In this document: in pieces, positions 343-44,510 of the stretch
Layout of the letters: the number at the start of each line of letters is the position of its first letter
How positions within the stretch are numbered: the stretch's first letter is position 1
Position numbers and translations under genes: made by a program
Source: a virus
Taxonomy: Duplodnaviria > Heunggongvirae > Uroviricota > Caudoviricetes
IMG/VR virus record: IMGVR_UViG_2721755710_000002
Reading direction: 5' to 3' (one strand)
Length of the DNA: 44,549 bases
Notes under the pieces: generated by a model
Told to the model about the DNA's origin: nothing
What the model saw: the letters and a program-made list of their open reading frames with translations, nothing else
Database searches by the model: none

Positions 343-363
343 TTTGAACACCGTTGATATTAA

Positions 364-385
364 GGACACCCTTGCAGGGGTGTCC
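364..385. repeat. perfect 8-bp inverted repeat (GGACACCC-N6-GGGTGTCC) between the two left-end ORFs
   Basis: Read directly from the sequence; no T-run follows, so not a canonical intrinsic terminator. Possible RNA hairpin or protein-binding site. Confidence 0.5.
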
Positions 386-397
386 ACTTACGCATGG

Positions 398-973
398 ATG
401 TTTAGTGTTGTGAGTATTATCTTAGTGTTTATTGGATGGTTTGTTACTTACAATAATTCACTGAAGATTGCTACTCGCTCTGAATCTAAATCGATTATAG
501 ATGCGATTGCTAAAATTTTAAACGAAATATCAGATTTGTCTCTGGATTACTGGGTTAATAAGTCAACACCACCAGATTCTAATCCATTTAAGAAAAAAAG
601 TTTTAAGAACTCTAATGGATTGCATACTCAGTCGGCGAAAATATATTTAACGGCAATTCATGGAAAAGCCATACAAATAAATAAATACATTAATCTTCTC
701 GATGAGAGGGGGATAAAAATAACAATTTCGTATTTTTCTAATATTATAGATGAAGCTACTATGGAATGTGAGAAATCATATTGTTTTAATAAGTCATATA
801 GGGTTTTTCGCGCTCAGAATGTATCTAGTGCTTGTGTCGATTTCATAATGCATTTATATGATTCTTTTCAAAAAAATCATCCTCCACGTAAGCCTGTATA
901 TGTATTGAAAACATTAAAACAATTGGATTGTTACTTGGATAAATGGCATAATGAATTATGTGGGCGGCAATAA
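398..973 (+). CDS. hypothetical membrane-anchored protein (one N-terminal TM helix, ~190 aa)
   Basis: ORF 260..973; the first ATG after the upstream stop and hairpin is at 398. Hydrophobic stretch FSVVSIILVFIGWFVTY near the N-terminus; AT-rich composition; no recognisable domain. Confidence 0.4.
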   Translation: MFSVVSIILVFIGWFVTYNNSLKIATRSESKSIIDAIAKILNEISDLSLDYWVNKSTPPDSNPFKKKSFKNSNGLHTQSAKIYLTAIHGKAIQINKYINLLDERGIKITISYFSNIIDEATMECEKSYCFNKSYRVFRAQNVSSACVDFIMHLYDSFQKNHPPRKPVYVLKTLKQLDCYLDKWHNELCGRQ

Positions 974-985: not shown

Positions 986-2152
986 TCATTGTATAATGTA
1001 TTTGATGGAGCTTTTTCCGTCGTATTCTTTGAGATATCGACCATAGTGCCTGAAAAGCATCTCCGGCCCTTTATGCCCCATTTGAGCTGCAAGCCAAAAC
1101 AGGTTTGCTCCTCGGCTGATATGGCTGGTGGCGAATGTATGCCTGGTTTGATATGGGTTTCTGTAACGAATACCTGCTTTTCGCAATGTTGGCACCCATG
1201 CTTTTTTCCTAATTGCATCAGCACTTGCCCAAGGCTTATTGGTCTTTGGATCTTCAAAGACAGTAGTATCCTTCATGAATGTAAATGGCTTCTGATTTAT
1301 CAGCGCCAACATTGCCTCTTCTGTCAGTTCAACTTTCCGAGTACCTGCTTTTGTCTTTGTCCCTTTGATAACACCGACAACACTTGCGCTCTGGACATGG
1401 GCAGTTTTTCCAACAAAGTCGATATCACGCCATCGAAGGGCACATAATTCAGAACTACGCAGGCCTGTATGTATAGCGAACCGGAACAGATTTTCCCATT
1501 GTTTGTTTCCGGCTGCTGCTAGTAATGCATCAACTTCTGCTGGTGATAGCGGATCAACTACGTAGCTGCTTTCTGCTTCTGACTTATCACTTTGGTAGCG
1601 CGAAGCTGTTACTAACGATACGGGGTTAATTTGAAGTACCCCATCGGTCACGGCTTCATCAAGTGCTGACCGCAGGAAAGATAACTGGTTGCGAATTGTT
1701 TTTAAGGTCGTTTTCTGATTTTGAATCCACGCTTTCAGGGTTGCTGGTGTTAATTCACTTGCAGGGCAAATGTGAAGTGAGGCTAACGCACTACGGCATT
1801 TTTTATAGCCACCAATCGTAGAGGGTGAAAGTTTTCTCGTTTCGCAGATTTCAAGGTATTCGTCCAGGTACATTTTTACCGTTTTGCCTGCAGCAGCATT
1901 ACCAAAAATTTTCAAACGAGCAGAACGGGGAAAATATTCCGCATAAATGAATGTTCCCCTTTCGATCTTATTATGAATTTCGCCGAGTGTGCGCTCGGCG
2001 TATTTAATGTTCTTTGGTGTTACTTCCAGATTGGAAAGAGGCTCACGACATTTAACACCTTTGTAGGTGAAAGTTATATTGATCGTTTCGCCCTGGCGGT
2101 GTTTCCTGATTGTTACGCCGCGCGGTAGTTTGAGCAGTTTTGTCTGGCCCAT
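986..2152 (-). CDS. int: tyrosine site-specific integrase
   Basis: 388-aa ORF; C-terminal catalytic region with HTGLRSSELCALRWRDID ... TRHTFATS ... HYGRY (R, H-x-x-R and Y typical of the phage integrase family). Confidence 0.9.
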   Translation of the reverse strand: MGQTKLLKLPRGVTIRKHRQGETINITFTYKGVKCREPLSNLEVTPKNIKYAERTLGEIHNKIERGTFIYAEYFPRSARLKIFGNAAAGKTVKMYLDEYLEICETRKLSPSTIGGYKKCRSALASLHICPASELTPATLKAWIQNQKTTLKTIRNQLSFLRSALDEAVTDGVLQINPVSLVTASRYQSDKSEAESSYVVDPLSPAEVDALLAAAGNKQWENLFRFAIHTGLRSSELCALRWRDIDFVGKTAHVQSASVVGVIKGTKTKAGTRKVELTEEAMLALINQKPFTFMKDTTVFEDPKTNKPWASADAIRKKAWVPTLRKAGIRYRNPYQTRHTFATSHISRGANLFWLAAQMGHKGPEMLFRHYGRYLKEYDGKSSIKYIIQ

Positions 2153-4224: not shown

Positions 4225-4899
4225 TTAGGCCTTTATTGTGTATCTTCTTGGTTTTCCCGAGAAAATCACTGTACCAATTATAGAGCAATTACCGTTAATC
4301 TTAATGTAAGGCTCAGGCCAGTTTGGGTTTAATGCTTTGAGATAACGCTGTGTTCCATCTTCTATCAATCGCTTGAAGGTGGTTTCGCCTGTATCGTGCA
4401 TCAATGCAATAACGTCGTCACCGTGGCAGGCAGGGACTTCGGGATCAACAAAAATCATGTCTCCAGGGCGGTACTCATCAATCATTGAATCACCAATCAC
4501 CCGCAAGATATAAGTCATTTCGCCACAGGGTACAGGGCAGGGATACGTTTCTGCTGTGCTCAAATCAACCTCAGAATAGCCAACTTCTTTCCATGCTCCG
4601 GCCTGTACCCATGATATGACAGGGACTAACGTTATTTGTTTGTTAGTGATTGAAACATCAGGTTTTTTTGTGATGTTCGTTGTCTGGTGTTCTTGATCAA
4701 GCCATCCGACAGGCAGGTCGAAACATTTTTCGATGTGCCGTGCCATGCTGTCACCGATATTTTTAGTAGCGCCATCCCCCATAAACCTGCTGGTTTGGGT
4801 TGGCTCGCGATCAATCATGGTGGCAAAGGATGAATTTCCGCCAACACCATCTCTCAGTTTTCTGGCGTTAGACCGCCGGATGTCATGGATTGTTTTCAT
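4225..4899 (-). CDS. cI: CI-type phage repressor (HTH plus LexA-like S24 peptidase domain)
   Basis: 224 aa; C-terminal autocleavage-domain hallmarks (…VIGDSM… / …FKRL…); diverges from the cro-like gene. Confidence 0.85.
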   Translation of the reverse strand: MKTIHDIRRSNARKLRDGVGGNSSFATMIDREPTQTSRFMGDGATKNIGDSMARHIEKCFDLPVGWLDQEHQTTNITKKPDVSITNKQITLVPVISWVQAGAWKEVGYSEVDLSTAETYPCPVPCGEMTYILRVIGDSMIDEYRPGDMIFVDPEVPACHGDDVIALMHDTGETTFKRLIEDGTQRYLKALNPNWPEPYIKINGNCSIIGTVIFSGKPRRYTIKA

Positions 4900-5785: not shown

Positions 5786-6618
5786 ACAGTTTAACGGCAA
5801 ATAACCGTTTGTCGCAACAGCTGGTGGTCAGCGTCGCTGAACACCTGTTGTTACGGCATGAATGCAGATTACCAAATCACCTGGCTGTAAGTAACCACAG
5901 AGAACTTTACCTGACTGTGGGGGGCGAGTTGTGCAGGAACTTAACCGCTGGTTTCGTGACGGAAGAGGACTTTATGTTCATGTTATTCGTTGGGAGCCAG
6001 AAACACAGCGCGTTATCTATCTTCGCAAAGACTACCCGCATGAGTGCTTTAGTCCTTTGTGGAAATTCAGGCGTGATTTTATTGAGTGTGAAGGACCACC
6101 AGCACATTGATTCTGCCATTCCGGGACGTTACACTGTTCAGGCACCTTATAAAGCGGGTGCCGGGATTGGCGTCCTGGAATTGATCAAGGCGATATATGA
6201 CGCGCCAGCGTCTTTTTTATCGTCCGCATTTGCTCACATCAAAGTTATGGTGGGCTGGGCGGGGGCATCGAAAGATGCGCCGGTTTCCTTGATCACCGGT
6301 TACGCCAACCCCGTTCAGTTCACCACCAGCGAAATTGGCGTTTCCGGTGGTGGAAGTATTTCACCGATCAAGGAGGCTGCCATCATGGCTACTGTCCCAG
6401 CCCTCACTCGTCTGAATGATGAAGACTTACATAAACTCAGTTATGTAACAACAGCACTACGTGCTCTGCGCAAGGTAACTCTTTCAGATCCGCAGGCGCA
6501 TCAACTTCTGGTAGAAACCCTTCTTAACTTGCAGGCTGAACGTATTCGTTTGGCGGATAAGGCTAATCTTCATATTCACCGTCTCCTGAATATCAGCGGA
6601 GGGCATCGTCATGCTTAA
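5782..6618 (+). CDS. hypothetical protein (278 aa)
   Basis: ATGA overlap with the upstream gene; no recognised motifs. Confidence 0.4.
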   Translation: MNSLTANNRLSQQLVVSVAEHLLLRHECRLPNHLAVSNHRELYLTVGGELCRNLTAGFVTEEDFMFMLFVGSQKHSALSIFAKTTRMSALVLCGNSGVILLSVKDHQHIDSAIPGRYTVQAPYKAGAGIGVLELIKAIYDAPASFLSSAFAHIKVMVGWAGASKDAPVSLITGYANPVQFTTSEIGVSGGGSISPIKEAAIMATVPALTRLNDEDLHKLSYVTTALRALRKVTLSDPQAHQLLVETLLNLQAERIRLADKANLHIHRLLNISGGHRHA

Positions 6619-11692: not shown

Positions 11693-11717
11693 AGGGGGAA
11701 TTACCCCCCTTTTTTTC
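11693..11717. terminator. intrinsic terminator immediately after Q, probably bidirectional
   Basis: GGGGG-aatta-CCCCCC stem followed by TTTTTTT on the plus strand; it also lies at the 3' end of the minus-strand cassette. Confidence 0.6.
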
Positions 11718-12249
11718 TCTGTTGCTTTAATAAAATTTTAATATTTTGTCTGATTATGATGAGGCAATGTAATAAAAGAAATACCGTTAGTATTGCAAGC
11801 CATACGCAAAATAAGCATGCATATAAATTAGTTGAAAGTCCAATAGTGAATTGTGCAATTGCTGTTGTGATAGAACATAATATTGATGTATTAATAAATG
11901 AGGATAAATTGTCTAAAGGTTTATAAAGTACACTATCATTGATTTTGTCAATAGGTATACCAGTGGCAATGCTATAAATTTCCTTATATTCCTGAGTTGC
12001 AAAAACCTTATCGCGTAAATTTATTATGACAAAGGTATGCAGGCTCAATAAAAATGAACCCACGGAAATAAAACCGGAGAAGAGATAGCCTCGTAAGTTT
12101 TTATGATAAAAATCAAAAAAGTTAACACTTACTTTAGGTGTGTTTCTGTACAATAGGTAAAGTGCAAGCAATGCCAGGATCGAGAATGCAAGCAGTGTAA
12201 TGTACTGATACCTCAATCTTTTATTTATTAGCCATTCATATAAAGGCAT
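11701..12249 (-). CDS. hypothetical integral membrane protein (about 4 TM helices), AT-rich cargo gene
   Basis: 182 aa with four hydrophobic segments (YITLLAFSILALLALYLLY; LFSGFISVGSFLLSLHTFVII; ILCSITTAIAQFTIGL; LYACLFCVWLAILTVFLLLHCLIII); overlaps the upstream gene by 14 nt. Confidence 0.6.
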   Translation of the reverse strand: MPLYEWLINKRLRYQYITLLAFSILALLALYLLYRNTPKVSVNFFDFYHKNLRGYLFSGFISVGSFLLSLHTFVIINLRDKVFATQEYKEIYSIATGIPIDKINDSVLYKPLDNLSSFINTSILCSITTAIAQFTIGLSTNLYACLFCVWLAILTVFLLLHCLIIIRQNIKILLKQQRKKGG

Positions 12250-13162
12250 TTTTATTCGTCCCGTTCAGCATTTCTTCTTTTATCATATCAAAAACAGGGT
12301 TTGTTGTATAATTATCGTTTGTCAATCCATTGACTTTATCGGCAATTATATCGAAATCGTATGTTTCAAAAAAAACAGGGCAGTTCATAAAATCAATGGT
12401 TTTTTCTATTCCTGCATGGTTTACTGCAATAACCTGTGCTTTAGCAACTCCACTCATAGAATTATAAATATTTGAAAGATTCTGAGATAGTTGTTGCACT
12501 TTTGTTCTGTCGCTAGAATTAAAATTCATATCTATTGTGGTGGTGTTAACAAATTGTTCAAGCGCAGTCATTGGTCCACCTTTAAAATCTATATAATTAA
12601 ATTTAAAGCTTGTGCTTTTAATCTCTTTGAATTGACATAAAACACTCTGAATGTTGTTTTTATTTGTCATAAGGCTGAAAGTCAGTCTTTCTTTGTATTT
12701 TTTATTTATTGCAGTTACTTCTTTTTGTTTTGGTTTATCACCAAGTTTTTTTATTTCTTCTTTATTTTGATTTCTGATAAATTCATTACTTATTGTTTCT
12801 AAATGAGAAAAGAGAGTGTTCAGACTGCATGAACCGTGGTGATACATATAGAGACCAGAAAGATTAGATTTTTTAATTAAGAAAAAGTTGAAATTAGCAA
12901 GTTTGTCACTTCCTTGAAGATCTTCAATTTTAAGCTGGAATTTACCATCAACAAATTGCGACTTACAGTTCTTTTTTTGGTTTCTGAATGTGACAACTAA
13001 TCCATAATAGAAATCATTCACATCCGAAATGAGAATTTTACGAGTATAGTCTGTGCGACTGTGTTCTCTGTTTGATGCGTTGATAAAAGCATTCATTACG
13101 TCAACGGTATTAATATTTTTGTTATTGTTATTTATTGTAAATCCTATGCTTCTAACTTTCAT
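12236..13162 (-). CDS. hypothetical soluble protein (308 aa), AT-rich cargo gene
   Basis: Long Lys/Asn-rich ORF antisense to the phage backbone; no Walker, HEPN, cyclase or nuclease motif recognised. Confidence 0.6.
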   Translation of the reverse strand: MKVRSIGFTINNNNKNINTVDVMNAFINASNREHSRTDYTRKILISDVNDFYYGLVVTFRNQKKNCKSQFVDGKFQLKIEDLQGSDKLANFNFFLIKKSNLSGLYMYHHGSCSLNTLFSHLETISNEFIRNQNKEEIKKLGDKPKQKEVTAINKKYKERLTFSLMTNKNNIQSVLCQFKEIKSTSFKFNYIDFKGGPMTALEQFVNTTTIDMNFNSSDRTKVQQLSQNLSNIYNSMSGVAKAQVIAVNHAGIEKTIDFMNCPVFFETYDFDIIADKVNGLTNDNYTTNPVFDMIKEEMLNGTNKNAFI

Positions 13163-16892: not shown

Positions 16893-17387
16893 ATGGATCG
16901 AGAGTTAAAAAATCTGACGCTGAATATCAGTCAACTGGCGGCATTGTCAGGTGTACATCGCCAGACTGCTGCGGCAAGGCTGCAAAATCTACCCGTTGCA
17001 GGGGGGCATGAAAGCAACCTCAAGCTTTATCGGGTGGTTGATATTGTGTCGGCATTTCTGGCATTACCACCGCCGGTTGCAGAAGGCGAAATGGACGCGC
17101 ATGAGCGCAAAGCCTGGTATCAGTCTGAACGTGAGCGTCTTAAGTTCGAACAGGAAACGGCACAACTCATTCCGGCCAGTGATGTCAGACGGGAGTTTGC
17201 CATCTGGGCAAAAGCGGTCGTGCAGGTGCTGGAGACATTACCGGATATTCTTGAACGTGACTGCGGTCTGCAGCCTGCCGCTGTGAGCCGTGTTCAGTCC
17301 ATTATTGATGATCTTCGCGATCAGATAGCCCTGCGGGTGACTGAAGCAGGTGCGGATGATGAGGAGGAATTACAGCAGGAGGAGTAA
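16893..17387 (+). CDS. terminase small subunit (Nu1-like)
   Basis: N-terminal HTH-like region (…LNISQLAALSGVHRQTAAARLQ…); first gene after cos, immediately upstream of the large subunit. Confidence 0.7.
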   Translation: MDRELKNLTLNISQLAALSGVHRQTAAARLQNLPVAGGHESNLKLYRVVDIVSAFLALPPPVAEGEMDAHERKAWYQSERERLKFEQETAQLIPASDVRREFAIWAKAVVQVLETLPDILERDCGLQPAAVSRVQSIIDDLRDQIALRVTEAGADDEEELQQEE

Positions 17388-19489
17388 TGCTGAATCAGGA
17401 AACCGCAAAGGCAGCACGAACCGATTCAGGTTATATCCTTCGCGCACCGAGACGAATGCGGGTTGCTGATGCCGTTGCTCAGTATATGCGGGTGCCCATG
17501 GGGGCAGGGAACTCAGTCCCGTGGGATCCGCTGGTGGCACCGTATGTTATTGAGCCTATGAACTGCCTGGCCTCGCGTGAATACGACGCAGTGATATTTG
17601 TTGGCCCGGCACGAACCGGCAAGACTATCGGCCTGATTGACGGCTGGGTGATTTACAACGTGATTTGCGATCCTGCTGATATGCTGATTATTCAGATGAC
17701 GGAGGAAAAAGCCCGCGAACACTCCAAAAAACGACTCGCCAGAACGTTTCGCGTCAGCCCGGAAGTGGTCAGTCGCCTGAGTCCGAACAAAAATGACAAC
17801 AACGTTTATGACAGAACATTCCTTGCTGGTAACTACCTGAAAATCGGCTGGCCGTCAGTCAATATCATGTCCTCATCAGATTATAAATGCGTCGCGCTGA
17901 CGGATTATGATCGTTTTCCGGAAGATATTGATGGCGAGGGGGATGCTTTCTCTCTTGCCTCAAAACGTACCACAACATTTATGTCCAGTGGTATGACGCT
18001 GGTGGAGAGTTCCCCCGGCAGGGATGTGAAGGATGTGAAATGGCGACGGACTTCACCGCATGAGGCTCCACCAACCACGGGGATACTGTCGCTCTATAAC
18101 CGTGGCGATCGCCGTCGCTGGTACTGGCCCTGTCCACACTGTGGTGAGTATTTTCAGCCCTGCGGCGATGTGGTTGCTGGTTTCCGTGATATTGCCGATC
18201 CCGTTCTGGCAAGTGAGGCGGCTTATATTCAGTGTCCTTCCTGTTCAGGACGGATTATGCCTGAACAAAAACGTGAGCTGAACGGACGTGGGGTCTGGTT
18301 GCGGGATGGTGAATCCATCAATGCGGATGGCAGTCGTTATGGTGATCCCCGACGCTCACGTATTGCGTCATTCTGGATGGAGGGGCCGGCAGCTGCTTAC
18401 CAGACACTCTCGCAACTCGTTTACAAACTGCTTACTGCAGAACAGGAATACGAGACAACCGGAAGTGAAGAAACACTCAAGACGGTTATCAATACCGACT
18501 GGGGATTACCTTATCTTCCCCGCGCCAGCATGGAGCAACGAAAAAGTGAACTGCTTGAGCAGCGGGCAGAGCCAGTTCCTTCCCGCAGTGTGCCGGATGG
18601 CGTTAATTTTCTTGTGGCGACAGTGGATGTGCAGGCGGGACGTCATCGCCGTTTTGTGGTTCAGGTAACGGGCTATGGCAGCCGTGGCGAACGCTGGATT
18701 ATTGATCGTTACAACATCACGCAGTCATTGCGCGGTGACTGCGACGGGGAGAGCCAGCGAATTGATCCGGCCAGCTACCCGGAAGACTGGGATGTCCTGC
18801 TGACGGATGTTTTTCATAAAAGCTGGCCGCTGGCCTCCGATCCTTCTCAACAAATGCGACTGATGGCAATGGCGGTGGACTCCGGCGGTGAAGACGGGGT
18901 CACTGATAATGCCTATAAATTCTGGCGTCGTTGCCGTCGTGATGGCCTTGGTAAACGTATTTACCTGTTTAAGGGTGACAGCATCCGGCGCGCAAAACTG
19001 ATCAGCCGTACATTCCCTGATAACACCGGACGAACGGGCCGCCGGGCGCAGGCCGCAGGTGATGTGCCGCTCTGGCTTCTTCAGACGGATGCACTGAAAG
19101 ACCGGGTGAATAACGCGTTATGGCGTGACTCGCCAGGTCCCGGCTATGTGCATTTCCCTGACTGGCTGGGGAGCTGGTTTTACGACGAACTGACGTATGA
19201 AGAGCGGAGCAGTGACGGGAAATGGAGTAAGCCGGGTCGCGGTGCCAACGAAGCTTTTGACCTGATGGTGTATGCCGAGGCTCTGGTCATTCTGCATGGA
19301 TACGAAAAGATCCGCTGGCCGGATGCACCGGAGTGGGCGAGCCGGGAAACCTGGCTGGAGTGTGTCCCGGACAGTATCGAACCGTCACCCTCACCGGAAC
19401 CGGTATCCACGCCTGTTAAAAAACAAAAACGGAAGAAAACAGTAACTGACGATGTTAACCCCTGGCTGACTTCCGGAGGATGGTTATGA
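17387..19489 (+). CDS. terminase large subunit (gpA-like)
   Basis: 700 aa; Walker A-like VGPARTGKT; position after the small subunit. Confidence 0.9.
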   Translation: MLNQETAKAARTDSGYILRAPRRMRVADAVAQYMRVPMGAGNSVPWDPLVAPYVIEPMNCLASREYDAVIFVGPARTGKTIGLIDGWVIYNVICDPADMLIIQMTEEKAREHSKKRLARTFRVSPEVVSRLSPNKNDNNVYDRTFLAGNYLKIGWPSVNIMSSSDYKCVALTDYDRFPEDIDGEGDAFSLASKRTTTFMSSGMTLVESSPGRDVKDVKWRRTSPHEAPPTTGILSLYNRGDRRRWYWPCPHCGEYFQPCGDVVAGFRDIADPVLASEAAYIQCPSCSGRIMPEQKRELNGRGVWLRDGESINADGSRYGDPRRSRIASFWMEGPAAAYQTLSQLVYKLLTAEQEYETTGSEETLKTVINTDWGLPYLPRASMEQRKSELLEQRAEPVPSRSVPDGVNFLVATVDVQAGRHRRFVVQVTGYGSRGERWIIDRYNITQSLRGDCDGESQRIDPASYPEDWDVLLTDVFHKSWPLASDPSQQMRLMAMAVDSGGEDGVTDNAYKFWRRCRRDGLGKRIYLFKGDSIRRAKLISRTFPDNTGRTGRRAQAAGDVPLWLLQTDALKDRVNNALWRDSPGPGYVHFPDWLGSWFYDELTYEERSSDGKWSKPGRGANEAFDLMVYAEALVILHGYEKIRWPDAPEWASRETWLECVPDSIEPSPSPEPVSTPVKKQKRKKTVTDDVNPWLTSGGWL

Positions 19490-31812: not shown

Positions 31813-34800
31813 ATGGGTAAAGGCAGCAGTAAGGGGCATACCCCGCGCGAAGCAAAGGACAACCTGAAGTCCACGCAGTTGCTGAGTGTGATCGATGCCA
31901 TCAGCGAAGGGCCGGTTGAAGGTCCGGTGGATGGATTAAAAAGCGTGCTGCTGAACAGTACACCGGTGCTGGACAGTGAGGGGAATACTAACATCTCCGG
32001 TGTCACGGTGGTGTTCCGGGCAGGTGAGCAGGAACAGACACCGCCGGAGGGATTTGAATCATCAGGTTCCGAGACGGTACTGGGTACGGAAGTGAAATAC
32101 GACACGCCGATCACCCGGACCATCACGTCGGCAAACATTGACCGTCTGCGCTTTACCTTCGGTGTGCAGGCACTGGTGGAAACCACCTCAAAGGGGGACA
32201 GGAATCCGTCGGAAGTTCGCCTGCTGGTTCAGATACAACGTAACGGTGGCTGGGTGACGGAAAAAGACATCACCATTAAGGGCAAAACCACCTCGCAGTA
32301 TCTGGCCTCGGTAGTGGTGGATAATTTGCCGCCGCGCCCGTTCAACATCCGGATGCGCAGGATGACGCCGGACAGCACCACAGACCAGCTGCAGAACAAA
32401 ACGCTCTGGTCGTCATACACCGAAATCATCGATGTGAAACAGTGCTACCCGAACACGGCACTGGTCGGCGTACAGGTGGATTCGGAGCAGTTCGGCAGCC
32501 AGCAGGTGAGCCGTAATTATCATCTGCGCGGGCGCATTCTGCAGGTGCCGTCGAACTATAACCCGCAGACGCGGCAATACAGCGGTATCTGGGACGGAAC
32601 GTTTAAGCCAGCATACAGCAACAACATGGCCTGGTGTCTGTGGGATATGCTGACCCATCCGCGCTACGGCATGGGGAAACGTCTTGGTGCGGCGGATGTG
32701 GACAAATGGGCGCTGTATGTCATCGGCCAGCATTGCGATCAGTCGGTGCCGGACGGTTTTGGCGGCACGGAGCCGCGCATCACCTGTAATGCGTACCTGA
32801 CCACACAGCGTAAGGCGTGGGATGTGCTCAGTGATTTCTGCTCGGCGATGCGCTGTATGCCGGTATGGAACGGGCAGACGCTGACGTTCGTGCAGGACCG
32901 ACCATCGGATAAGGTGTGGACCTATAACCGCAGTAATGTGGTGATGCCGGATGATGGCGCACCATTCCGCTACAGCTTCAGCGCCCTGAAAGACCGCCAT
33001 AATGCCGTTGAAGTGAACTGGATTGACCCGGATAACGGCTGGGAGACGGCAACAGAGCTTGTGGAGGACTCGCAGGCCATTGCCCGTTATGGTCGTAACG
33101 TCACGAAGATGGATGCGTTTGGCTGTACCAGTCGGGGGCAGGCGCACCGCGCCGGGCTGTGGCTGATTAAAACGGAGCTGCTGGAAACGCAGACCGTGGA
33201 CTTCAGCGTGGGTGCTGAAGGGCTTCGCCATGTACCGGGCGATGTCATTGAAATCTGCGATGATGACTATGCCGGTATCAGCACCGGCGGGCGCGTGCTG
33301 GCGGTGAACAGCCAGACCCGGACGCTGACGCTCGACCGTGAAATCACGCTGCCATCCTCCGGTACCACGCTGATAAGCCTGGTTGACGGAAGTGGCAATC
33401 CGGTCAGCGTGGAGGTCCAGTCCGTCACCGACGGCGTGAAGGTAAAAGTGAGCCGTGTTCCTGACGGCGTTGCCGGATACAGCGTATGGGGGCTGAAGCT
33501 GCCGACGCTGCGCCAGCGCCTGTTCCGCTGCGTGAGTATCCGTGAGAACGATGACGGCACGTATGCCATCACTGCCGTGCAGCATGTACCGGAAAAAGAG
33601 GCCATCGTGGATAACGGGGCGCACTTTGACGGCGACCAGAGCGGCACGGTGAATGGTGTCACGCCGCCAGCAGTGCAGCATCTGACCGCAGAAGTCACCG
33701 CAGACAGCGGGGAATACCAGGTGCTGGCCCGCTGGGACACGCCGAAGGTGGTGAAGGGGGTGAGCTTCCTGCTTCGCCTGACCGTGGCAGCGGATGACGG
33801 CAGTGAGCGGCTGGTCAGCACGGCCCGGACGACGGAAACCACTTACCGCTTCACGCAACTGGCGCTGGGGAACTACAGGCTGACAGTCCGGGCAGTAAAT
33901 GCGTGGGGGCAGCAGGGCGATCCGGCGTCGGTATCGTTCCGGATTGCCGCACCGGCAGCGCCGTCGCGGATTGAGCTGACGCCGGGCTATTTTCAGATAA
34001 CCGCCACGCCGCATCTTGCGGTTTACGATCCGACGGTACAGTTTGAGTTCTGGTTCTCGGAAACGCGGATTACCGATATCAGGCAGGTTGAAACCACAGC
34101 CCGCTACCTTGGCACGGGGCTGTACTGGATAGCCGCCAGTATCAATATCAAACCGGGCCATGATTATTACTTTTATATCCGCAGTGTGAACACCGTTGGC
34201 AAATCGGCATTCGTGGAGGCTGTTGGTCAGCCGAGTGATGACGCATCCGGCTATCTGGATTTTTTCAAAGGCGAGATAGGGAAAACCCATCTGGCTCAGG
34301 AGCTGTGGACGCAGATTGATAACGGTCAGCTTGCGCCTGACCTGGCTGAAATCAGGACATCCATTACGGATGTCAGCAATGAAATCACACAGACCGTCAA
34401 TAAGAAACTGGAAGACCAGAGTGCAGCGATCCAGCAGATACAGAAGGTTCAGGTTGATACAAATAATAACCTGAACAGCATGTGGGCCGTGAAACTGCAG
34501 CAGATGCAGGACGGACGCCTTTATATTGCGGGTATCGGTGCCGGTATTGAGAATACGCCAGCAGGAATGCAGAGTCAGGTGCTGCTGGCGGCAGACAGGA
34601 TTGCGATGATTAATCCTGCGAATGGCAACACAAAGCCGATGTTTGTTGGTCAGGGTGATCAGATATTCATGAACGATGTGTTCCTGAAATATCTGACGGC
34701 TCCCACCATTACCAGCGGCGGTAATCCTCCTGCATTTTCCCTTACACCGGACGGGCGACTGACGGCGAAAAATGCGGATATCAGTGGCAGTGTGAATGCG

Positions 34801-35292
34801 AACGCCGGGACGCTCAACAATGTCACGATAAATGAAAACTGTCGGGTTCTGGGAAAACTGTCTGCGAACCAGATTGAAGGCGATCTCGTTAAAACAGTGG
34901 GCAAAGCTTTCCCCCGGGACTCCCGTGCACCGGAGCGGTGGCCATCAGGGACCATTACCGTCAGGGTTTATGACGATCAGCCGTTTGACCGGCAGATTGT
35001 TATTCCCGCGGTGGCGTTTCGTGGCGCTAAACATGAGCGGGAGAATAACGATATTTATTCGTCATGCCGCCTGATAGTGAAGAAAAACGGTGCTGAAATT
35101 TATAACCGTACCGCGCTGGATAATACGCTGGTTTATACAGGTGTTATTGATATGCCTGCTGGTCGCGGTCACATGACGCTGGAGTTTTCGGTATCAGCGT
35201 GGCTGGTAAATGACTGGTATCCCACAGCCAGTATCAGTGATTTGCTGGTTGTGGTGATGAAGAAATCCACAGCAGGTATCACGATTAGCTGA
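31813..35292 (+). CDS. central tail fiber / host specificity protein J
   Basis: 1159 aa; N-terminus [45 protein letters not shown]… matches the recalled lambda gpJ start. Confidence 0.9.
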
Positions 35293-36013: not shown

Positions 36014-36024
36014 GTGGGGTGAAT

Positions 36025-39000
36025 ATGGCAGTAAAGATTTCAGGTGTACTGAAAGACGGTGCAGGTAAACCGGTACAGAACTGTACAATCCAGCTGAAAG
36101 CAAAACGTAACAGCACCACGGTGGTGGCGAACACGGTGGCCTCAGAAAATCCGGATGAAGCCGGGCGTTACAGCATGGACGTTGAGTACGGTCAGTACAG
36201 CGTTATTCTGTTGGTGGAAGGCTTCCCGCCATCGCATGCCGGGACCATCACCGTGTATGAAGACTCACAACCGGGTACGCTGAATGATTTTCTTGGTGCC
36301 ATGACGGAGGATGATGCCCGTCCGGAGGCACTGCGCCGCTTTGAACTGATGGTGGAAGAGGTGGCGCGTAACGCGTCCGCAGTGGCGCAGAACACAGCAG
36401 CCGCGAAGAAGTCAGCCAGCGATGCCAGCACATCAGCCCGTGAGGCGGCAACCCGTGCGACTGATGCTGCAGGCTCAGCACGTGCAGCCAGCACGTCAGC
36501 CGGACAGGCCGCGTCGTCGGCTCAGTCAGCGTCTTCCAGCGCAGGAACAGCATCAACAAAGGCCACTGAAGCATCAAAAAGTGCTGCCGCCGCAGAGTCT
36601 TCAAAAAGCGCGGCAGCCACCAGTGCCGGCGCAGCGAAAACGTCGGAAACGAATGCCGCAGCGTCACAAAAATCTGCGGCCACATCTGCATCCACCGCGA
36701 CCACGAAAGCGTCAGAAGCTGCCACCTCAGCCCGGGATGCGTCGGCTTCAAAAGTGGCGGCAAAATCATCAGAAACGAGCGCAGCCTCGAGCGCCGGCAG
36801 TGCAGCTTCCTCGGCAACGGCGGCAGGAAATTCCGCGAAGGCCGCAAAAACGTCTGAGACGAATGCGGATAACAGCGCACAGGCGGCAGCAGACTCACAA
36901 ACTGCATCGGCAAACTCCGCGACAGCAGCCAAAAAATCAGAAACCAACGCGAAAAATAGTGAGGCAGCAGCAAAGGTCAGCGAAACCAACGCTAAAGCGT
37001 CAGAGAACAAGGCGAAAGAATATCTCGACAAGGTCGGGGGACTCGTCAGCCCGATGACGCAATACGATTGGCCTGTTGTTACTGCTAGTGAGTCTCTTTA
37101 CATCAAGATCGCGAAACTTTCCGATCCTGGAACCAGCAGAAGTCATGTAACGCTAATGGTTACTAACGCTGGTAACTACGGCTCCCCTTACGGAAACATT
37201 GACTTTATCGAGATCTCGGCGCGCGGTCTGCCTTCTTTGCTTAGTGCGGATAATGTTTCTCGTCATCTGAGTATACGCCGCTTAGGGTCAACCGGGCTGA
37301 CCGATAACAACCAGATGCGTTACGGCCTGGTTAAAGGTGACGGCTTTATTGAGGTTTGGGCATTCCAGGGTGCGTTTATTAACGACGCAAAGGTTGCGGT
37401 GCTGGCGCAGACAACACTAAGCACAGAATTATACATCCCAGACGGATTTGTTAAGCAAACCGCCGCGCCTTCTGGATATATTGAAGGCAACGTTGTAAGG
37501 ATTTACGACCAGGTAAACAAGCCGACTAAAGCAGATTTGGGTCTTTCTAATGCTATGCTTACAGGCGCTTTCGGTCTTGGCGGTAGCGGGATATCAACAA
37601 ACGGCAAGATGAGCGATGTAGAGATCTTAAAAGCTCTGCGTGACAAAGGTGGTCATTTCTGGCGCGGTGATAAGCCGCCCGGAAGCACGGCGACCATTTA
37701 TAGCCACGGTTCTGGTATATTCTCGCGGTGCGGCGATACGTGGTCAGCGATCAATATCGACTACTCAACCGCGAAGATTAAGATCTATGCCGGCAACGAT
37801 GCCCGGCTTAACAACGGGACTTTTAGCGTCAATGAGCTATACGGCTCGGCAAACAAGCCGTCGAAATCGGATGTTGGACTTGGCAACGTAACGAACGATG
37901 CGCAGGTAAAAAAAACCGGCGATACAATGACCGGTGACTTGACAATCAAAAAAGGTACACCGTCAGTCTTCCTGCGGGCAGACAGTGGAGTCACCGCTTT
38001 GCGGTTTTATACTGGCGATAACACAGAGCGCGGCATAATTTATGCTGGTCCTAACACTGATTCGCTTGGCGAAGTTCGCATCAGGGCAAAGACAGCAGGG
38101 GGGACATCAGGAGGGGATCTTGTTGTTCGTCACGACGGGAGGGTTGAAGTCCGTGATCTCACAGTAGCGTATAAAATTAAAAGCAGAACGATTGAGATTG
38201 CAAATACCGACACTGACTCATCGGCAACTACGCTAAGCATCTATGGAGTACAGCACACGCCGTTGGTTTTAACGCGTTCTGGTTCTTCTGAAAATGTGTC
38301 CATTGGGTTTAAGTTAGACAACGTGAACCAAAAGTATCTTGGAATTGATACTAATGGGGATCTGGCTTTTGGTGAGAGTCCTGATCAGAAACAAAACAGC
38401 AAATTGATCACGCAAGCGAAACTCGACAAGGGATTAACGATTGGTGGTCAACTGGCTTTCAAAGGTACGACAGCGTTTTCAGCCGTTGCTACGTTCAGTG
38501 CCGGGATAGCAGGAGCCATCGAGCCGGAAAACATTGACGGCCAGACGGTTAATCTTAACAACCTGACCATCATCAAGTCAGATGTCGGGGCAGTTAAATA
38601 CTATATTTGTCCATCCTCTGCAGGTGGTGCAAATATTACCAATAAGCCTGACGGCATAGCCGGTAACTTTTTGCTTCGTGTAGAGTCGACTCGTAAGGTT
38701 AGGGATTCAGATTATGCGAACATGCAAACGCTGATTAACAGCGACACAAAACGTATATACGTTCGCTTTGTTGTTAATGGAAACTGGACAGCGTGGAGTC
38801 AGGTTGTTGTTTCCGGATGGAATCAGGATGTAACCGTCAGGTCGTTAACCTCGACGACTCCATCAAAATTAGGTGGCGGGCGGATTGATGTGCTTGGAAG
38901 TACTTCAGATTATGGCAGCATGAATTGTACCGTTCGTGGTGTTGATAGCACTGGAACCAATTCGGCGTGGTCGGTAGGCACATCAGAAAGCACAGGCAAA

Positions 39001-39804
39001 ATGTTGTTCCTGAAAAACCACAGAAGCAGCGCTCAAGTGCTGTTAAATGGCGATGATGGAGCGGTTCAACTACTAAGTGGCACTGTTAACGGGGCTACAG
39101 CGCAGGCGCTCACTATCAACAGGAATGAGGTTAACTCAACTGTTGATTTAACCCTTACAAAACAATCAGGGACTGGCAATCGTTTTGTTTTACAGAACTC
39201 AGGTAATGCAGAACTACCGTTTTCTGTCAGGGTGTGGGGTTCCAGTACTCGACAAAACGTTTTTGAGGTTGGTACGTCTGCTGCGTATCTGTTTTATGCG
39301 CAAAAAACAACAGACGGGCAAAACCTTACTGTAAACGGAAGTGTTAACTGCACCACACTGAATCAGTCATCAGACCGCAGACTGAAAGAAAATATCGAGA
39401 TTATCGATAACGCGACTGACGCAATCCGCAAAATTAATGGATACACGTACACGCTCAAGGAGAATGGGGCACATTGCGCCGGGGTTATAGCCCAGGAAGT
39501 TGAAGAGGCCATCCCGGAGGCCGTTGGTTCATTCATCCATTACGGTGAAGAGTTGCAAGGCCCGACCGTTGACGGCAACGAGCTACGCGAAGAAACGCGC
39601 TATCTTAATGTTGACTACGCCGCCGTGACGGGTTTACTTGTTCAGGTCGCCCGTGAAACAGATGATCGCGTTACCGCGCTGGAAGAGGAAAACACAACGC
39701 TACGTGAAAATCTGGCAACAGCAGACACCCGGATCAGCACTCTGGAAAATCAGGTAAGCGAACTGGTTGCACTTGTCCGGCAGTTAACAGGAAGCGAACA
39801 TTGA
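36025..39804 (+). CDS. stf: side tail fiber: lambda Stf-like N-terminus, Ala/Ser-rich repeats, divergent distal domain, C-terminal intramolecular chaperone (S74-like) domain
   Basis: N-terminus MAVKISGVLKDGAGKPVQNCTIQLKAKRNSTTVVANTV… matches the recalled lambda Stf; repeat region with reiterated AAKTSETNA units; C-terminal …SSDRRLKENIEII…GVIAQEV… chaperone signature from 39367. Confidence 0.85.
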   Translation: MAVKISGVLKDGAGKPVQNCTIQLKAKRNSTTVVANTVASENPDEAGRYSMDVEYGQYSVILLVEGFPPSHAGTITVYEDSQPGTLNDFLGAMTEDDARPEALRRFELMVEEVARNASAVAQNTAAAKKSASDASTSAREAATRATDAAGSARAASTSAGQAASSAQSASSSAGTASTKATEASKSAAAAESSKSAAATSAGAAKTSETNAAASQKSAATSASTATTKASEAATSARDASASKVAAKSSETSAASSAGSAASSATAAGNSAKAAKTSETNADNSAQAAADSQTASANSATAAKKSETNAKNSEAAAKVSETNAKASENKAKEYLDKVGGLVSPMTQYDWPVVTASESLYIKIAKLSDPGTSRSHVTLMVTNAGNYGSPYGNIDFIEISARGLPSLLSADNVSRHLSIRRLGSTGLTDNNQMRYGLVKGDGFIEVWAFQGAFINDAKVAVLAQTTLSTELYIPDGFVKQTAAPSGYIEGNVVRIYDQVNKPTKADLGLSNAMLTGAFGLGGSGISTNGKMSDVEILKALRDKGGHFWRGDKPPGSTATIYSHGSGIFSRCGDTWSAINIDYSTAKIKIYAGNDARLNNGTFSVNELYGSANKPSKSDVGLGNVTNDAQVKKTGDTMTGDLTIKKGTPSVFLRADSGVTALRFYTGDNTERGIIYAGPNTDSLGEVRIRAKTAGGTSGGDLVVRHDGRVEVRDLTVAYKIKSRTIEIANTDTDSSATTLSIYGVQHTPLVLTRSGSSENVSIGFKLDNVNQKYLGIDTNGDLAFGESPDQKQNSKLITQAKLDKGLTIGGQLAFKGTTAFSAVATFSAGIAGAIEPENIDGQTVNLNNLTIIKSDVGAVKYYICPSSAGGANITNKPDGIAGNFLLRVESTRKVRDSDYANMQTLINSDTKRIYVRFVVNGNWTAWSQVVVSGWNQDVTVRSLTSTTPSKLGGGRIDVLGSTSDYGSMNCTVRGVDSTGTNSAWSVGTSESTGKMLFLKNHRSSAQVLLNGDDGAVQLLSGTVNGATAQALTINRNEVNSTVDLTLTKQSGTGNRFVLQNSGNAELPFSVRVWGSSTRQNVFEVGTSAAYLFYAQKTTDGQNLTVNGSVNCTTLNQSSDRRLKENIEIIDNATDAIRKINGYTYTLKENGAHCAGVIAQEVEEAIPEAVGSFIHYGEELQGPTVDGNELREETRYLNVDYAAVTGLLVQVARETDDRVTALEEENTTLRENLATADTRISTLENQVSELVALVRQLTGSEH

Positions 39805-39987
39805 TATCCTTCAAGCTCTGAAGGAGGCTGTTCCCGGTACGTTCAGACTGTTGTTGAGCTGGAAATCGCAACGGAGGAAGAGAAAGCGTTACTGGCCGCA
39901 TGGAAAAAGTATCGGGTGTTGCTGAACCGTGTTGATACATCAACTGCACCTGATATTGAGTGGCCAGAAGAACCAGACACCGTGTAA
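39805..39987 (+). pseudogene. tfa: remnant of tail fiber assembly gene tfa (C-terminal fragment only, no start codon)
   Basis: Open frame without ATG encodes …[37 protein letters not shown], matching the recalled C-terminus of lambda Tfa. Confidence 0.6.
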
Positions 39988-40056: not shown

Positions 40057-40875
<819 letters not shown>

Positions 40876-41236: not shown

Positions 41237-42670
41237 ATGTCTGAATTTGAAGTGTTGGCACAGCATCTGCTGAAGGAAGCCGAGGCGGAAGAAAAGCTGC
41301 GACAGGAAAATGATAAAAAGCTTATCGAGAAAGTGCTGGAAATCTATGATCAGAAGTATGTGGCTGAATTACTGAGAAAAGTCGGAAAAAATGAGTGGAG
41401 CCGTGAAACCATTAACCGCTGGATTAATGGCAAGTGTTTACCAAAATCGTTGACTTCAGTAGAAGAGTCTCTTCTGCGTAAGATGCTACCAGAACCACCT
41501 GCAAACCATCCGGAATATGCTTTCCGCTTCATTGACTTATTTGCTGGAATTGGAGGGATACGGAAAGGTTTTGAGGCCATTGGAGGCCAGTGTGTTTTTA
41601 CCAGTGAATGGAATAAAGATGCTGTGCGTACATACAAGGCCAACTGGTTTAACGATGAACAGGTGCATAAATTCAATCTCGATATTCGGGAAGTCACGCT
41701 GAGTGATAAAACCGATGTATTGGAAACGGATGCTTATGCATATATTGATGAGCATGTGCCGGATCATGATGTGCTTCTTGCGGGGTTCCCGTGCCAGCCA
41801 TTTAGCCTTGCTGGTGTTAGTAAGAAAAACTCACTTGGTCGTGCGCATGGTTTTGAATGTGAAGCACAAGGAACACTTTTTTTTGACGTGGCACGTATTA
41901 TACGAGCAAAAAAACCGGCAATTTTTGTGCTGGAAAATGTCAAAAATCTGAAGAGCCATGATAAGGGTAAAACTTTCAAAGTCATTATGGAGACCCTTGA
42001 CGAGCTGGGCTACGAAGTTGCCGATGCTGCAGAAATGGGAAAAAACGATCCAAAGATTATCGATGGGAAGCATTTTTTGCCTCAGCATCGTGAACGCATT
42101 GTTCTGGTCGGATTTAGACGAGATCTGAATATTCACAAGGGGTTTACCTTGCGTGATATCAGTCGTTTTTATCCGGAACACCGCCCATCATTTGGTGAAT
42201 TGCTGGAGCCTGTAGTCGACAGTAAATATATACTTACGCCAAAACTATGGGAGTACCTTTATAACTACGCCAAAAAGCATGCAGCCAAGGGGAATGGTTT
42301 TGGCTTTGGGTTGGTCAATCCTGAGAATAAGGAAAGCATTGCACGCACACTTTCTGCCAGATATCACAAAGACGGATCAGAAATTCTTATTGATCGTGGT
42401 TGGGATATGGCAACGGGAGAGGCTGACTTTATGAATGAGAGTAATCAGGCTCGTCGACCACGCAGGCTGACTCCCCGAGAGTGCGCACGCCTTATGGGAT
42501 TTGAAAAACCTGGAGGGAAACCATTCCGTATTCCGGTTTCAGATACTCAGTCATATCGGCAGTTCGGTAACTCAGTTGTGGTGCCAGTATTTGAAGCTGT
42601 TGCCAGACTTCTGGAACCCTATATCCTCAAAGCTGTTTCTGCTGATGCTGGTAAGACTGGGCAGCCTTGA
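41237..42670 (+). CDS. DNA cytosine-5 methyltransferase, Dcm/M.EcoRII-like
   Basis: C5-MTase motifs [10 protein letters not shown] (I), [11 protein letters not shown] (IV), VLENVKNL (VI), [10 protein letters not shown] (X); GGAGG RBS 6 nt upstream of the ATG at 41237, giving 477 aa. Confidence 0.9.
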
Positions 42671-42704: not shown

Positions 42705-43913
42705 CTATGATAGTTCAGCGTAAAGCTCTATCAGCTCAGTAATGAATGCTCCGAGCGTTATTAATTCTTCTCTAACTGCTTCTGGGTATTTTTTATGTAA
42801 AGTTGATGGTACAACGAGTCTGACACCCGCATCTTTCATTTCTCGGTATTGTGCTGAAGAAACACCTTCTTGCAGTGTAAATAAATGTACCTGATGGATT
42901 TTATCTGCTTCATTCAGTATCTGACGCCAGCGATCTTTGCAGGTGGTCTTTACTGCCAGCATACGTAAGTTTTCTACAGGAAATTCAACGTTATGATATG
43001 CCTCTGCTGAAGGAAACAGGAAATCTGGTTTTTTATTACCTTCAGTAACTGCCTGAGTGGAGAAATGCCGTAGTCCGTGCTCGATAAAAAGCTTCTCTAG
43101 GTGAAGTTCAAGTGATTTGCCTGCCCTTGATTTACGTCGATTACTGACAGAGTTGGCTAATGCAATAAACTCATCTACAGAATCGAATCCTTTCTTAATA
43201 ATATCAAGAACATGTAATTCCTCGACGAGTAGAAAAATATCATACTCGACACGCCGACGGTCAATCAGTTGCTCATCTGGATCCTTGGAGTTTTTAGCAT
43301 AATGGCCAGCAGCATATTGAATAATTTCGTTTCCAGAAGGAAAACGCTTCTTCCAGTCTTCAGGAATAACATATTTATGATTTACTGGAGTTTGCTGAAG
43401 AGACAATCCGCCCAAAATTTGTCCGGCAGGGCCGGAAATTAGGGTTCCAGGTATGATTTCGCCAATAGCAGACTCGATGATATCCTCTTCATCGGGATTG
43501 ACGCAGACCCATATATCTACCTCGGAACAGTCAGTGTTCTGTTCGTTTAACCTGAAAGCAAGAATTGTGAGGGCTCCTGTATTTTCAGGGTTCTGTAATG
43601 GACTTCCTCTCCCCCAGCGCGTAATTCTTTTTTCGTTTCGGGTCTTACCAAAATAACGGTTGTTGTAATAAATTGCGCGTGCTTGGGTATCAGGGCAATC
43701 ATGGGATGATACATGCGCAGTAAGGAAGACTGAAGGGTTCAGTTCGCGAGTATGATTGATAGATGGAAAAAGCTTTTCAACGATATTTGAGGGGATATAA
43801 AGTCCGACCTGATGGCCACCTGTTGCGCCTGTGTCGTTTGCAGAAAGGCGTTTGATGTAGATAAAGTAATTCCCGCTTGCGATATCAAGCAGCCAGTTAT
43901 GAAAAACCGACAT
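42705..43913 (-). CDS. EcoRII-like type IIE restriction endonuclease
   Basis: ~402-404 aa; N-terminal …YIKRLSANDTGATGGHQVGLYIP… and overall sequence resemble EcoRII as recalled; convergent with the MTase. Start could be 43913 or 43919. Confidence 0.75.
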   Translation of the reverse strand: MSVFHNWLLDIASGNYFIYIKRLSANDTGATGGHQVGLYIPSNIVEKLFPSINHTRELNPSVFLTAHVSSHDCPDTQARAIYYNNRYFGKTRNEKRITRWGRGSPLQNPENTGALTILAFRLNEQNTDCSEVDIWVCVNPDEEDIIESAIGEIIPGTLISGPAGQILGGLSLQQTPVNHKYVIPEDWKKRFPSGNEIIQYAAGHYAKNSKDPDEQLIDRRRVEYDIFLLVEELHVLDIIKKGFDSVDEFIALANSVSNRRKSRAGKSLELHLEKLFIEHGLRHFSTQAVTEGNKKPDFLFPSAEAYHNVEFPVENLRMLAVKTTCKDRWRQILNEADKIHQVHLFTLQEGVSSAQYREMKDAGVRLVVPSTLHKKYPEAVREELITLGAFITELIELYAELS

Positions 43914-43990
43914 ATACATCCCTTTGTTAACATACAGTCAGGGTTAACATTTTTCCATAGTTATAGATAAGCGGCTAGGAACTTAAGGGA

Positions 43991-44017
43991 AAAACAAAAA
44001 GCCCGCATAAGCGGGCT
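43991..44017 (-). terminator. intrinsic terminator downstream of ssrA
   Basis: On the minus strand AGCCCGC-ttat-GCGGGCT followed by TTTTTGTTTTT, ~130 nt past the tmRNA 3' end. Confidence 0.6.
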
Positions 44018-44147
44018 TTTGTGTCACTCGAGAGCCGCGGCTCCTTTGCGTATCCTTTTTTGTCTCCTCACCGTCTGGTCGGTGTCCTGCTGAGACTGCT
44101 AACTTCCTGTTTTTGTTGGTGTTGTCCTTACACCGTCCAATCATGAT

Positions 44148-44510
44148 TGGTGGAGCTGGCGGGAGTTGAACCCGCGTCCGAAATTCCTACATCCTCGGTA
44201 CTACATGCTTAGTCAGTCTTTACATTCGCTTGCCAGCTGCGGACGGACACGCCACTAACAAACTAGCCTGATTAAGTTTTAACGCTTCAACCCCAGGCAG
44301 GGCTTCCACGCGATCTCTTTTGGGTTTGACCTCTCTTGATCCCCGTCCTAAGAGCGGAGGCTAGGGAGAGAGGGCTCTAAGCAGGTTATTAAGCTGCTAA
44401 AGCGTAGTTTTCGTCGTTTGCGACTATTTTTTGCGGCTTTTTACGAGGCCAACCGCCCCTCGGCATGCACCTTGGGTTTCGCAAATCCCGTCGAATCCAG
44501 AATCAGCCCC
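44148..44510 (-). ncRNA. ssrA: tmRNA (SsrA), 363 nt
   Basis: The reverse complement begins GGGGCTGATTCTGGATTCGACGGGATTTGCGAAACCCAAGGTGCATGCCGAGGGGCGGTTGGCCTCGTAAAAAGCCGCAAAAAATAGTCGCAAACGACGAAAACTACGCTTTAGCAGCTTAATAA (tag-peptide ORF …ANDENYALAA*) and ends …GGACGCGGGTTCAACTCCCGCCAGCTCCACCA. Confidence 0.9.

Follow-up and report, generated by a model that had tools for sequence, protein, structure and literature searches.

An almost complete lambda-like prophage, very probably integrated at the 3' end of the tmRNA gene ssrA, with an EcoRII-type restriction-modification pair and PD-T4-3 as predicted phage cargo

The DNA analyzed here, called the window, is the whole stretch of 44,549 nucleotides. 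Our results indicate that it comprises almost the whole of a 45.2-kb lambda-like prophage, which is very probably (about 0.93) integrated site-specifically in the 3' end of ssrA, the tmRNA gene. The element is a new case of a known kind, a prophage with a PhiNP/LLS-type integrase at ssrA, and in this respect it is ordinary. It carries little weight beyond correct annotation, and the interest for follow-up lies in a conserved, possibly structured ssrA trailer that is common to chromosomes and attP.

The right end of the window holds the target gene, its junction with the prophage, and the attP arm that follows the gene in the lysogen.

44148 to 44510, minus strand: intact ssrA (tmRNA), found by ARAGORN and Rfam RF00023, with the tag peptide ANDENYALAA
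44147 to 44177, no strand assigned: right att core, the junction with the ssrA body, 31 bp, TTGGTGGAGCTGGCGGGAGTTGAACCCGCGT
43993 to 44146, minus strand: P arm of attP, which is the ssrA 3' trailer in the lysogen; 92% identical to the annotated LLS attP region and also present in PhiNP

The tmRNA gene was the only one that ARAGORN found in the window, and RF00023 matched at the same coordinates with 295.8 bits (E 9e-121) over model positions 1-374 of 374, untruncated. The gene was identical to the K-12-type tmRNA at 363 of 363 positions, and the target gene has therefore been regenerated intact, with its 3' end (44148) pointing into the interior of the window. The core TTGGTGGAGCTGGCGGGAGTTGAACCCGCGT is composed of the 3'-terminal 30 nt of ssrA (the T arm, the 3' strand of the acceptor and CCA) and 1 further nt, and the last 30 nt of the window's ssrA are now supplied by the prophage. 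On the other side of ssrA, the near-identical genome of E. coli elppa10 carries smpB, ratA, yfjF, bamE, and recN, which is the usual chromosomal context. A first-pass annotation of this DNA had described ssrA as intact with its 3' end toward the prophage, as the likely integration target, and as having no second copy of its 3' end in the window. The ARAGORN result and the full-length Rfam match agree with the first point. The third was borne out by searches that tolerated mismatches, in which a 28-mer with up to 3 mismatches and a 15-mer with up to 2 recovered no second ssrA 3' end in the window. The role of ssrA as the target is supported by a 31-bp repeat, an empty site, and the homologies of the integrase and of attP, which are described below.

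The second copy of the core was found beyond base 1 of the window. Its position was read in the near-identical genomes of elppa10 and CH427. The first of these (NZ_CP083478.1) served as the proxy for the flanks and is colinear with the whole window of 44,549 bp; the alignment is free of gaps and contains 3 mismatches. In elppa10, the left att copy lies at 18913 to 18943 of locus L001, which is equivalent to window positions -1087 to -1057. It forms a perfect 31-bp direct repeat with the right core and was the sole significant BLAST match (E 6e-12) of the ssrA 3' region in the extended sequence. Between the two ssrA 3' ends, at the right end of the window and at the left in elppa10, there are 45,234 bp, and the boundaries of the prophage are now set by this interval. 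Strain CH427, which has the same left end, carries an identical P' arm followed by the same 30-nt ssrA end, and beyond this lies a different neighboring island with a different integrase. Since the repeat is kept despite another neighbor, it belongs to the prophage boundary and not to one particular neighbor. The first-pass annotation had offered two explanations for the missing repeat, the first being that the left attachment site lies beyond base 1, and had proposed a search of the left flank for the ssrA 3' end. The perfect copy 1,057-1,087 bp to the left in elppa10, together with the same junction in CH427, confirms this explanation. An att repeat that is missing from a fixed window can thus be a mere edge effect.

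To the left of base 1, elppa10 carries in order a 307-aa cargo gene and a gene for a 413-aa integrase on the same strand as ssrA. Farther out lie a degraded island (two IS3 copies and a truncated ypjA), ileY, and glaH-lhgO-gabDTP. The 413-aa integrase is identical to K-12 IntA of CP4-57 at 350 of 413 positions, which marks the immediate left neighbor of the prophage as a relative of CP4-57. Likewise, the spacer between the integrase gene and the ssrA repeat is the K-12 ssrA-intA spacer. A synthetic empty site of 695 bp was composed of the IntA spacer, a single core, and ssrA. Many E. coli genomes matched it in one uninterrupted piece over its full length (100% coverage, 99.9% identity), and the matching region is annotated there as ssrA adjoining an integrase. 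At least 80% of the query was covered in 636 genomes. A comparison with an empty ssrA locus had also been proposed in the first pass, and an uninterrupted site was found in hundreds of E. coli genomes. Because the empty site is contiguous, the 45.2 kb between the repeats correspond to a precise insertion at an ssrA that already carried a CP4-57-type island. The locus is a tandem array, in which the prophage lies between ssrA and the older CP4-57-type (IntA) island.

Tandem arrays of this type are known from tRNA and tmRNA genes. In the Islander/TIGER work, the target is split and regenerated, a displaced 3' fragment marks the far end of the element, and elements stack through repeated integration (PMC4383910). 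The locus in the window is one more instance, with no difference in kind. Like the prophage, the CP4-57 (IntA) island of K-12 occupies the 3' end of ssrA and supplies the 3' end of the gene and a terminator. However, its integrase belongs to an unrelated subfamily, its int lies beside ssrA on the same strand, and it is not a lambda-like phage.

The integration genes and the cargo beside them are located at the left end of the window and just beyond it.

986 to 2152, minus strand: tyrosine integrase (Int), 388 aa, PhiNP/LLS type; Pfam Arm-DNA-bind_2 81.3 bits, Phage_integrase 61.1 bits
2113 to 2319, minus strand: excisionase (Xis), overlapping the int start; phrog_2917, 148.4 bits
1 to 342, plus strand: STAS-like DUF4325 protein, cargo; Pfam DUF4325
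344 to 973, plus strand: hypothetical protein of 209 aa, cargo; weak 2TM-effector match
19085 to 20008 of L001, outside the window: third left cargo gene, 307 aa, from the elppa10 annotation

Int is the window's sole integrase, with 92.5% identity to that of PhiNP, 87.4% to that of Klebsiella phage Kp4866-6, and 86.9% to that of Escherichia phage LLS. In contrast, only 69 positions were identical in a 430-column alignment with the neighboring IntA-type integrase, and two unrelated integrases thus use one gene, ssrA. PhiNP, a phage of Citrobacter rodentium (OR565852.1), was shown experimentally to integrate in E. coli K-12 in the 25-bp sequence TGGTGGAGCTGGCGGGAGTTGAACC at the 3' terminus of ssrA, and its integration duplicates TGGTGGAGCTGGCGGGAGTTGAACC and reconstitutes ssrA (PMC6456863). 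This experimental att corresponds to the first 25 bp of the core in the window, where the identity extends over 30-31 bp.

The first-pass annotation had noted that int is located about 42 kb from ssrA with cargo genes beyond it, and the coordinates of int and of the two open reading frames to its left agree. The distance is explained by the layout of this phage family, in which int comes to rest at the end far from ssrA and is separated from attP by a variable cargo slot. An AAA ATPase gene occupies the slot in PhiNP, AAA ATPase and Dam genes fill it in strain H1, and LLS has a gene for a 271-aa hypothetical protein there. For the element studied here, the 307-aa gene and the P' arm sit just beyond the left edge of the window. 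The left cargo proteins matched phrog_5816, phrog_30059, and phrog_3364, and PADLOC gave no significant match for the three of them. The three-gene slot between attP and int may represent an undescribed defense system.

In addition to Int, PhiNP shares with the prophage the ssrA 3' target, a P arm beside the core, xis beside int, and a cargo gene that separates int from attP. The remainder of its genome differs, and the phage was described as a member of the Myoviridae (PMC6456863). Its cargo consists of AAA ATPase, DinI, HicAB, and acetyltransferase genes, without the restriction-modification (R-M) pair or PD-T4-3. In the PhiNP record, which is given as circular, the 25-bp att core occurs twice in tandem at the origin (end of L004 and start of L005). 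This appears to be an artefact of joining the attL and attR ends of the prophage and not a true attP.

Phage LLS (PQ299149.1) is a free temperate phage that was isolated on E. coli K-12. Its record contains an annotated attP and a 'tmRNA pseudogene', and its P arm and core are 92% identical to those of the window. The gene order is also the same, running from tail fibers through morons, P arm, core, and one cargo gene to int and xis. LLS differs in its morons, which are the Fin invertase and hypothetical genes, with no R-M genes or PD-T4-3. In addition, its tmRNA-like segment is 39 bp with mismatches, and its P' arm cannot be aligned with that of the window.

The P arm ends in a terminator-like hairpin (44020 to 43997, minus strand) of 10 pairs with a T-run. 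It is kept in LLS, PhiNP, and strain H1, whereas the P' arms are poorly conserved among the relatives. A candidate arm-type Int site, the 11-mer CTTTGCGTATC, occurs in both arms here and in the P arm only in LLS, PhiNP, and H1. Because the P' arms are poorly conserved, the arm-type sites are putative. A looser candidate motif, similar to TC(Y)TTTRCG, is visible by eye in the P' arms.

Taken together, these features agree with the classical mechanism of phage integration. Int, as the presumed agent, binds the core and arm sites of attP, which holds the last 30 nt of ssrA. Strand exchange presumably takes place at some point within the 25-bp segment of the ssrA T arm and acceptor that is common to all relatives. 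Integration splits ssrA, and the gene is restored at the right end by the last 30 nt that the phage brings with it. The phage also supplies a trailer of about 150 nt with a strong terminator, completing the ssrA transcription unit. The displaced original 3' end of ssrA stays at the left end, 1.06 kb beyond base 1. Int and Xis would reverse the integration, and the element may still be competent for excision. In this arrangement int comes to lie distal to ssrA, with one variable cargo slot between int and attP and another between the tail-fiber genes and attP, and the latter is filled by the EcoRII-type R-M pair and PD-T4-3.

The region between xis and the R-M genes codes for the phage proper.

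2320 to 36018, no strand assigned: lambda-like prophage body; RefSeq annotation of elppa10, and PHROG for terminase, portal, and repressor
4225 to 4899, minus strand: repressor; PHROG
17387 to 19489: large terminase; PHROG
31813 to 35292: J; RefSeq annotation of elppa10
36019 to 39804, plus strand: side tail fiber with a C-terminal S74 intramolecular chaperone, without internal stops; phage_tail_N 238.6 bits, Peptidase_S74 60.1 bits
39853 to 39987, plus strand: remnant of the tail-fiber-assembly gene tfa, 45 codons, N-terminus missing; RefSeq annotation of elppa10

The body also contains replication and Nin-region genes, the Q antiterminator, lysis genes, the portal, a ClpP-protease/capsid fusion, tail genes, and Lom. 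It thus has the set expected of a lambdoid phage, with a CI-like repressor, Q, lysis, terminase, portal, and capsid functions, and a lambda-type tail (tape measure, L, K, I, J, Lom, stf).

The prophage may be defective, since tfa is truncated and RefSeq flags J as a pseudogene ('internal stop') in elppa10, which is 3 SNPs from the window. The side tail fiber of elppa10 is also annotated as a pseudogene in partial pieces. Few strains have near-identical copies; coverage of at least 80% of the first 12 kb of the window was reached in 38 genomes. A prophage that was inserted as described and is now fixed and defective, unable to excise or to produce particles and domesticated as a carrier of defense genes, would be compatible with these observations, and we consider this unlikely while giving it an appreciable chance. 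Against it, the int, xis, repressor, terminase, portal, capsid, tail, J, and stf reading frames are all open in the window, including the two annotated as pseudogenes in elppa10, and both att cores are perfect (the left copy in elppa10). Moreover, a tail fiber with an S74 chaperone may not need Tfa.

One of the 3 SNPs between the window and elppa10 may be the J stop. At the homologous position in strain H1, tfa is intact (L008, 5230 to 5814) and is accompanied by a different tail-fiber module. A comparison of the window with H1 places a swap of the tail-fiber module by recombination at about window position 39842.

Two further regions of the body were observed. In the early region, the Rfam matches to isrK (6142 to 6218, plus strand, 64.2 bits) and C4 antisense RNA (6243 to 6330, plus strand, 82.3 bits) lie side by side just upstream of a gene annotated as an ash family protein. 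The pair resembles an antisense immunity module of the P1/P7 type, here carried by a lambda-like prophage. Two hypothetical genes (182 and 308 aa) with a GC content of about 0.31 occupy 11701 to 13162 (minus strand), downstream of none of the tail genes but between Q and the lysis genes. This is a strongly AT-rich moron on the opposite strand, and it may be another defense or accessory cassette.

Three genes are located between the tail-fiber region and the P arm.

40057 to 40830, minus strand: GIY-YIG protein, predicted PD-T4-3 single-gene anti-phage defense system; PADLOC PDLC04031, 462.8 bits
41195 to 42670, plus strand: Dcm/EcoRII-type C5 cytosine methyltransferase, with its start at 41237 according to RefSeq; Pfam DNA_methylase 263.3 bits, NCBIfam NF007772 927.2 bits
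42705 to 43919, minus strand: EcoRII-type type II restriction endonuclease; EcoRII-N 205.8 bits, EcoRII-C 239.6 bits, PADLOC REase_II 775.5 bits

The GIY-YIG protein is a predicted defense protein by its full-length match to PDLC04031 (residues 1-256 on model positions 1-255 of 256), and it also matched phrog_5356 (472.5 bits) and the Pfam family LEM-3_GIY-YIG. The other two genes are predicted to form an EcoRII-type R-M pair, in which an endonuclease with an EcoRII-N effector domain and an EcoRII-C catalytic domain adjoins a C5 methyltransferase, with CCWGG as the putative recognition sequence. The methyltransferase is Dcm-like, and the host's own Dcm presumably already protects the chromosome from an EcoRII-type endonuclease.

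The first-pass annotation had placed GIY-YIG and R-M genes between the tail fiber and ssrA, and the Pfam and NCBIfam domains agree with this placement. Its second explanation for the missing att repeat, that this block is a separate small island at ssrA to which the prophage is merely adjacent, is very improbable according to our results. The GC content of the block (0.42-0.45) is lower than that of the tail region, the block abuts a truncated tfa in elppa10, and in a megablast search of 50,697 phage records the matches were confined to the initial ~240 nt, a stretch of tail-fiber sequence; these three observations would suit an independent island. However, no integrase was found among the three genes, no additional ssrA repeat was found in the window, and neither an ssrA repeat nor any other repeat separates the block from the phage. 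In addition, the 154 bp between the endonuclease gene and ssrA are homologous to the attP arm of LLS (92%) and to the arm of PhiNP. An attP arm between the block and ssrA puts the block on the phage side of attP, and the precise insertion that is defined by the empty site includes the block. PD-T4-3 also belongs to a PHROG family and therefore occurs in phage genomes.

Strain H1 points in the same direction. It carries the same three proteins, with identical accessions, between ssrA with its arm and an intact tfa and tail-fiber module, inside the att repeats. Its far end has an identical Xis (WP_001331174.1) adjoining int, an Int identical at 377 of 388 positions, the AAA ATPase and Dam methylase cargo, and a 25-bp ssrA repeat. 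Judged from its sequence, H1 is a mosaic relative that encloses R, M, and PD-T4-3 within the att boundaries. The block was found beside ssrA in about 240-260 genomes, and phage tail-fiber or tail-fiber-assembly genes were beside it in 25 of 25 among the matches listed for a 5-kb query. The R-M pair and PD-T4-3 are thus best regarded as predicted phage cargo inside the att boundaries. They were probably acquired by recombination in the moron slot of the phage. The presence of defense genes in the att-proximal slots of a phage is typical of prophage-carried defense.

It is extremely improbable that the prophage merely adjoins ssrA and occupies another site, bordered at int and at the tail-fiber end by an att repeat of its own: the sole motive for this reading is the 42-kb distance between int and ssrA, the 12 bp between the int stop and the neighboring cargo reading frame leave no room for an att, and the closest characterized integrase, that of PhiNP, uses ssrA. 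The first pass had named such a repeat as the finding that would overturn integration at ssrA, and apart from the ssrA core no direct repeat longer than 12 bp was found between the left end and the tail-fiber, R-M, and ssrA end. The siting of the prophage at ssrA therefore stands.

The P arm has a wider distribution than the phage family. A similar sequence, 90-94% identical, was present in 4,170 of 5,426 E. coli genomes. K-12-type and O157 genomes carry their copy of the arm immediately beyond ypjA, where the CP4-57-type island has its distal border, and a degenerate ssrA 3' end, TTGGTGGGCTGGCGGAGTCTGAAT, comes next. This sequence is the displaced and decayed original 3' end of ssrA. Borders of the TTGGTGGGCTGGCGGAGTCTGAAT type were found at 6155 to 6180 of L006 and also in L021, L025, and L023 (K-12-type E. 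coli, Enterobacter genomosp. O). Since the displaced end is degenerate, excision of the CP4-57-type island would leave a mutant ssrA. We also considered whether ypjC-pinH-ypjA of K-12 is the relic right arm of an LLS-like phage, and rejected this candidate. The pinH remnant has 53% amino acid identity to Fin of LLS over 53 residues only, nothing else matched, and the resemblance was not decisive.

Copies of the arm block elsewhere were located as follows.

L006: 6001 to 6154
L007: 6001 to 6154
L014: about 6393 to 6544
L003: about 6001 to 6152
L005: 11 to 142

Among species-representative genomes, 17 loci with the block were identified. An intact ssrA beside smpB directly precedes the block in E. 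albertii, E. ruysiae, E. whittamii, Mixta tenebrionis, and two Erwinia species. In Trabulsiella the block also follows an intact ssrA, and no smpB match was found in that locus. The order in E. whittamii is free of islands and consists of gabT, gabD, lhgO, and glaH (97.5-98.6% identical), about 570 bp, the block, ssrA, and smpB. From this arrangement, the block in E. whittamii resembles native chromosomal DNA. DinI and HicB genes come after the block in Erwinia tracheiphila, as they do at the right end of PhiNP, which indicates that the block is phage-borne there.

Folding of the block in the ssrA sense gives three short hairpins in addition to the terminator. Alignment cells were paired in 93% of cases, compared with 32-54% when the partners were slid, and 16 cells were changed on both sides, compared with 8.3 ± 2.2 in shuffles. 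When counted by pairs, 4 were changed on both sides compared with 3.5 in shuffles, and the variants come from few lineages. Several variants in the block are G-U pairs, which would be A-C mismatches on the opposite strand. The evidence of covariation in the arm is suggestive at most. With permissive settings, Rfam found no family for the arm in 43900 to 44200, and the sub-threshold matches were on the terminator hairpin only.

These observations might be explained if the attP arm is not ordinary arm DNA of a phage but a copy of a native, structured 3' trailer of pre-tmRNA with its terminator, which was captured by the phage family. We hold this reading tentatively, at well below even odds. If it is true, the entire 3' end of the ssrA transcription unit travels with the phage, and lysogens would make normally processed tmRNA. 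The left junction in a host with the native flank would also closely resemble attP. Conversely, the chromosomal arm copies could be fossil arms of old prophages of the PhiNP/LLS-type family.

The enterobacterial arm sequence was also observed in L010 (Chryseobacterium sp.) and in L019 (a metagenome-assembled genome, MAG, of Ancylobacter). L010 also contains an intact tmRNA with the E. coli-type tag ANDENYALAA, and in L019 the ssrA 3' end lies at the end of the contig. The arm in these two loci most likely reflects contamination or mis-binning of enterobacterial DNA.
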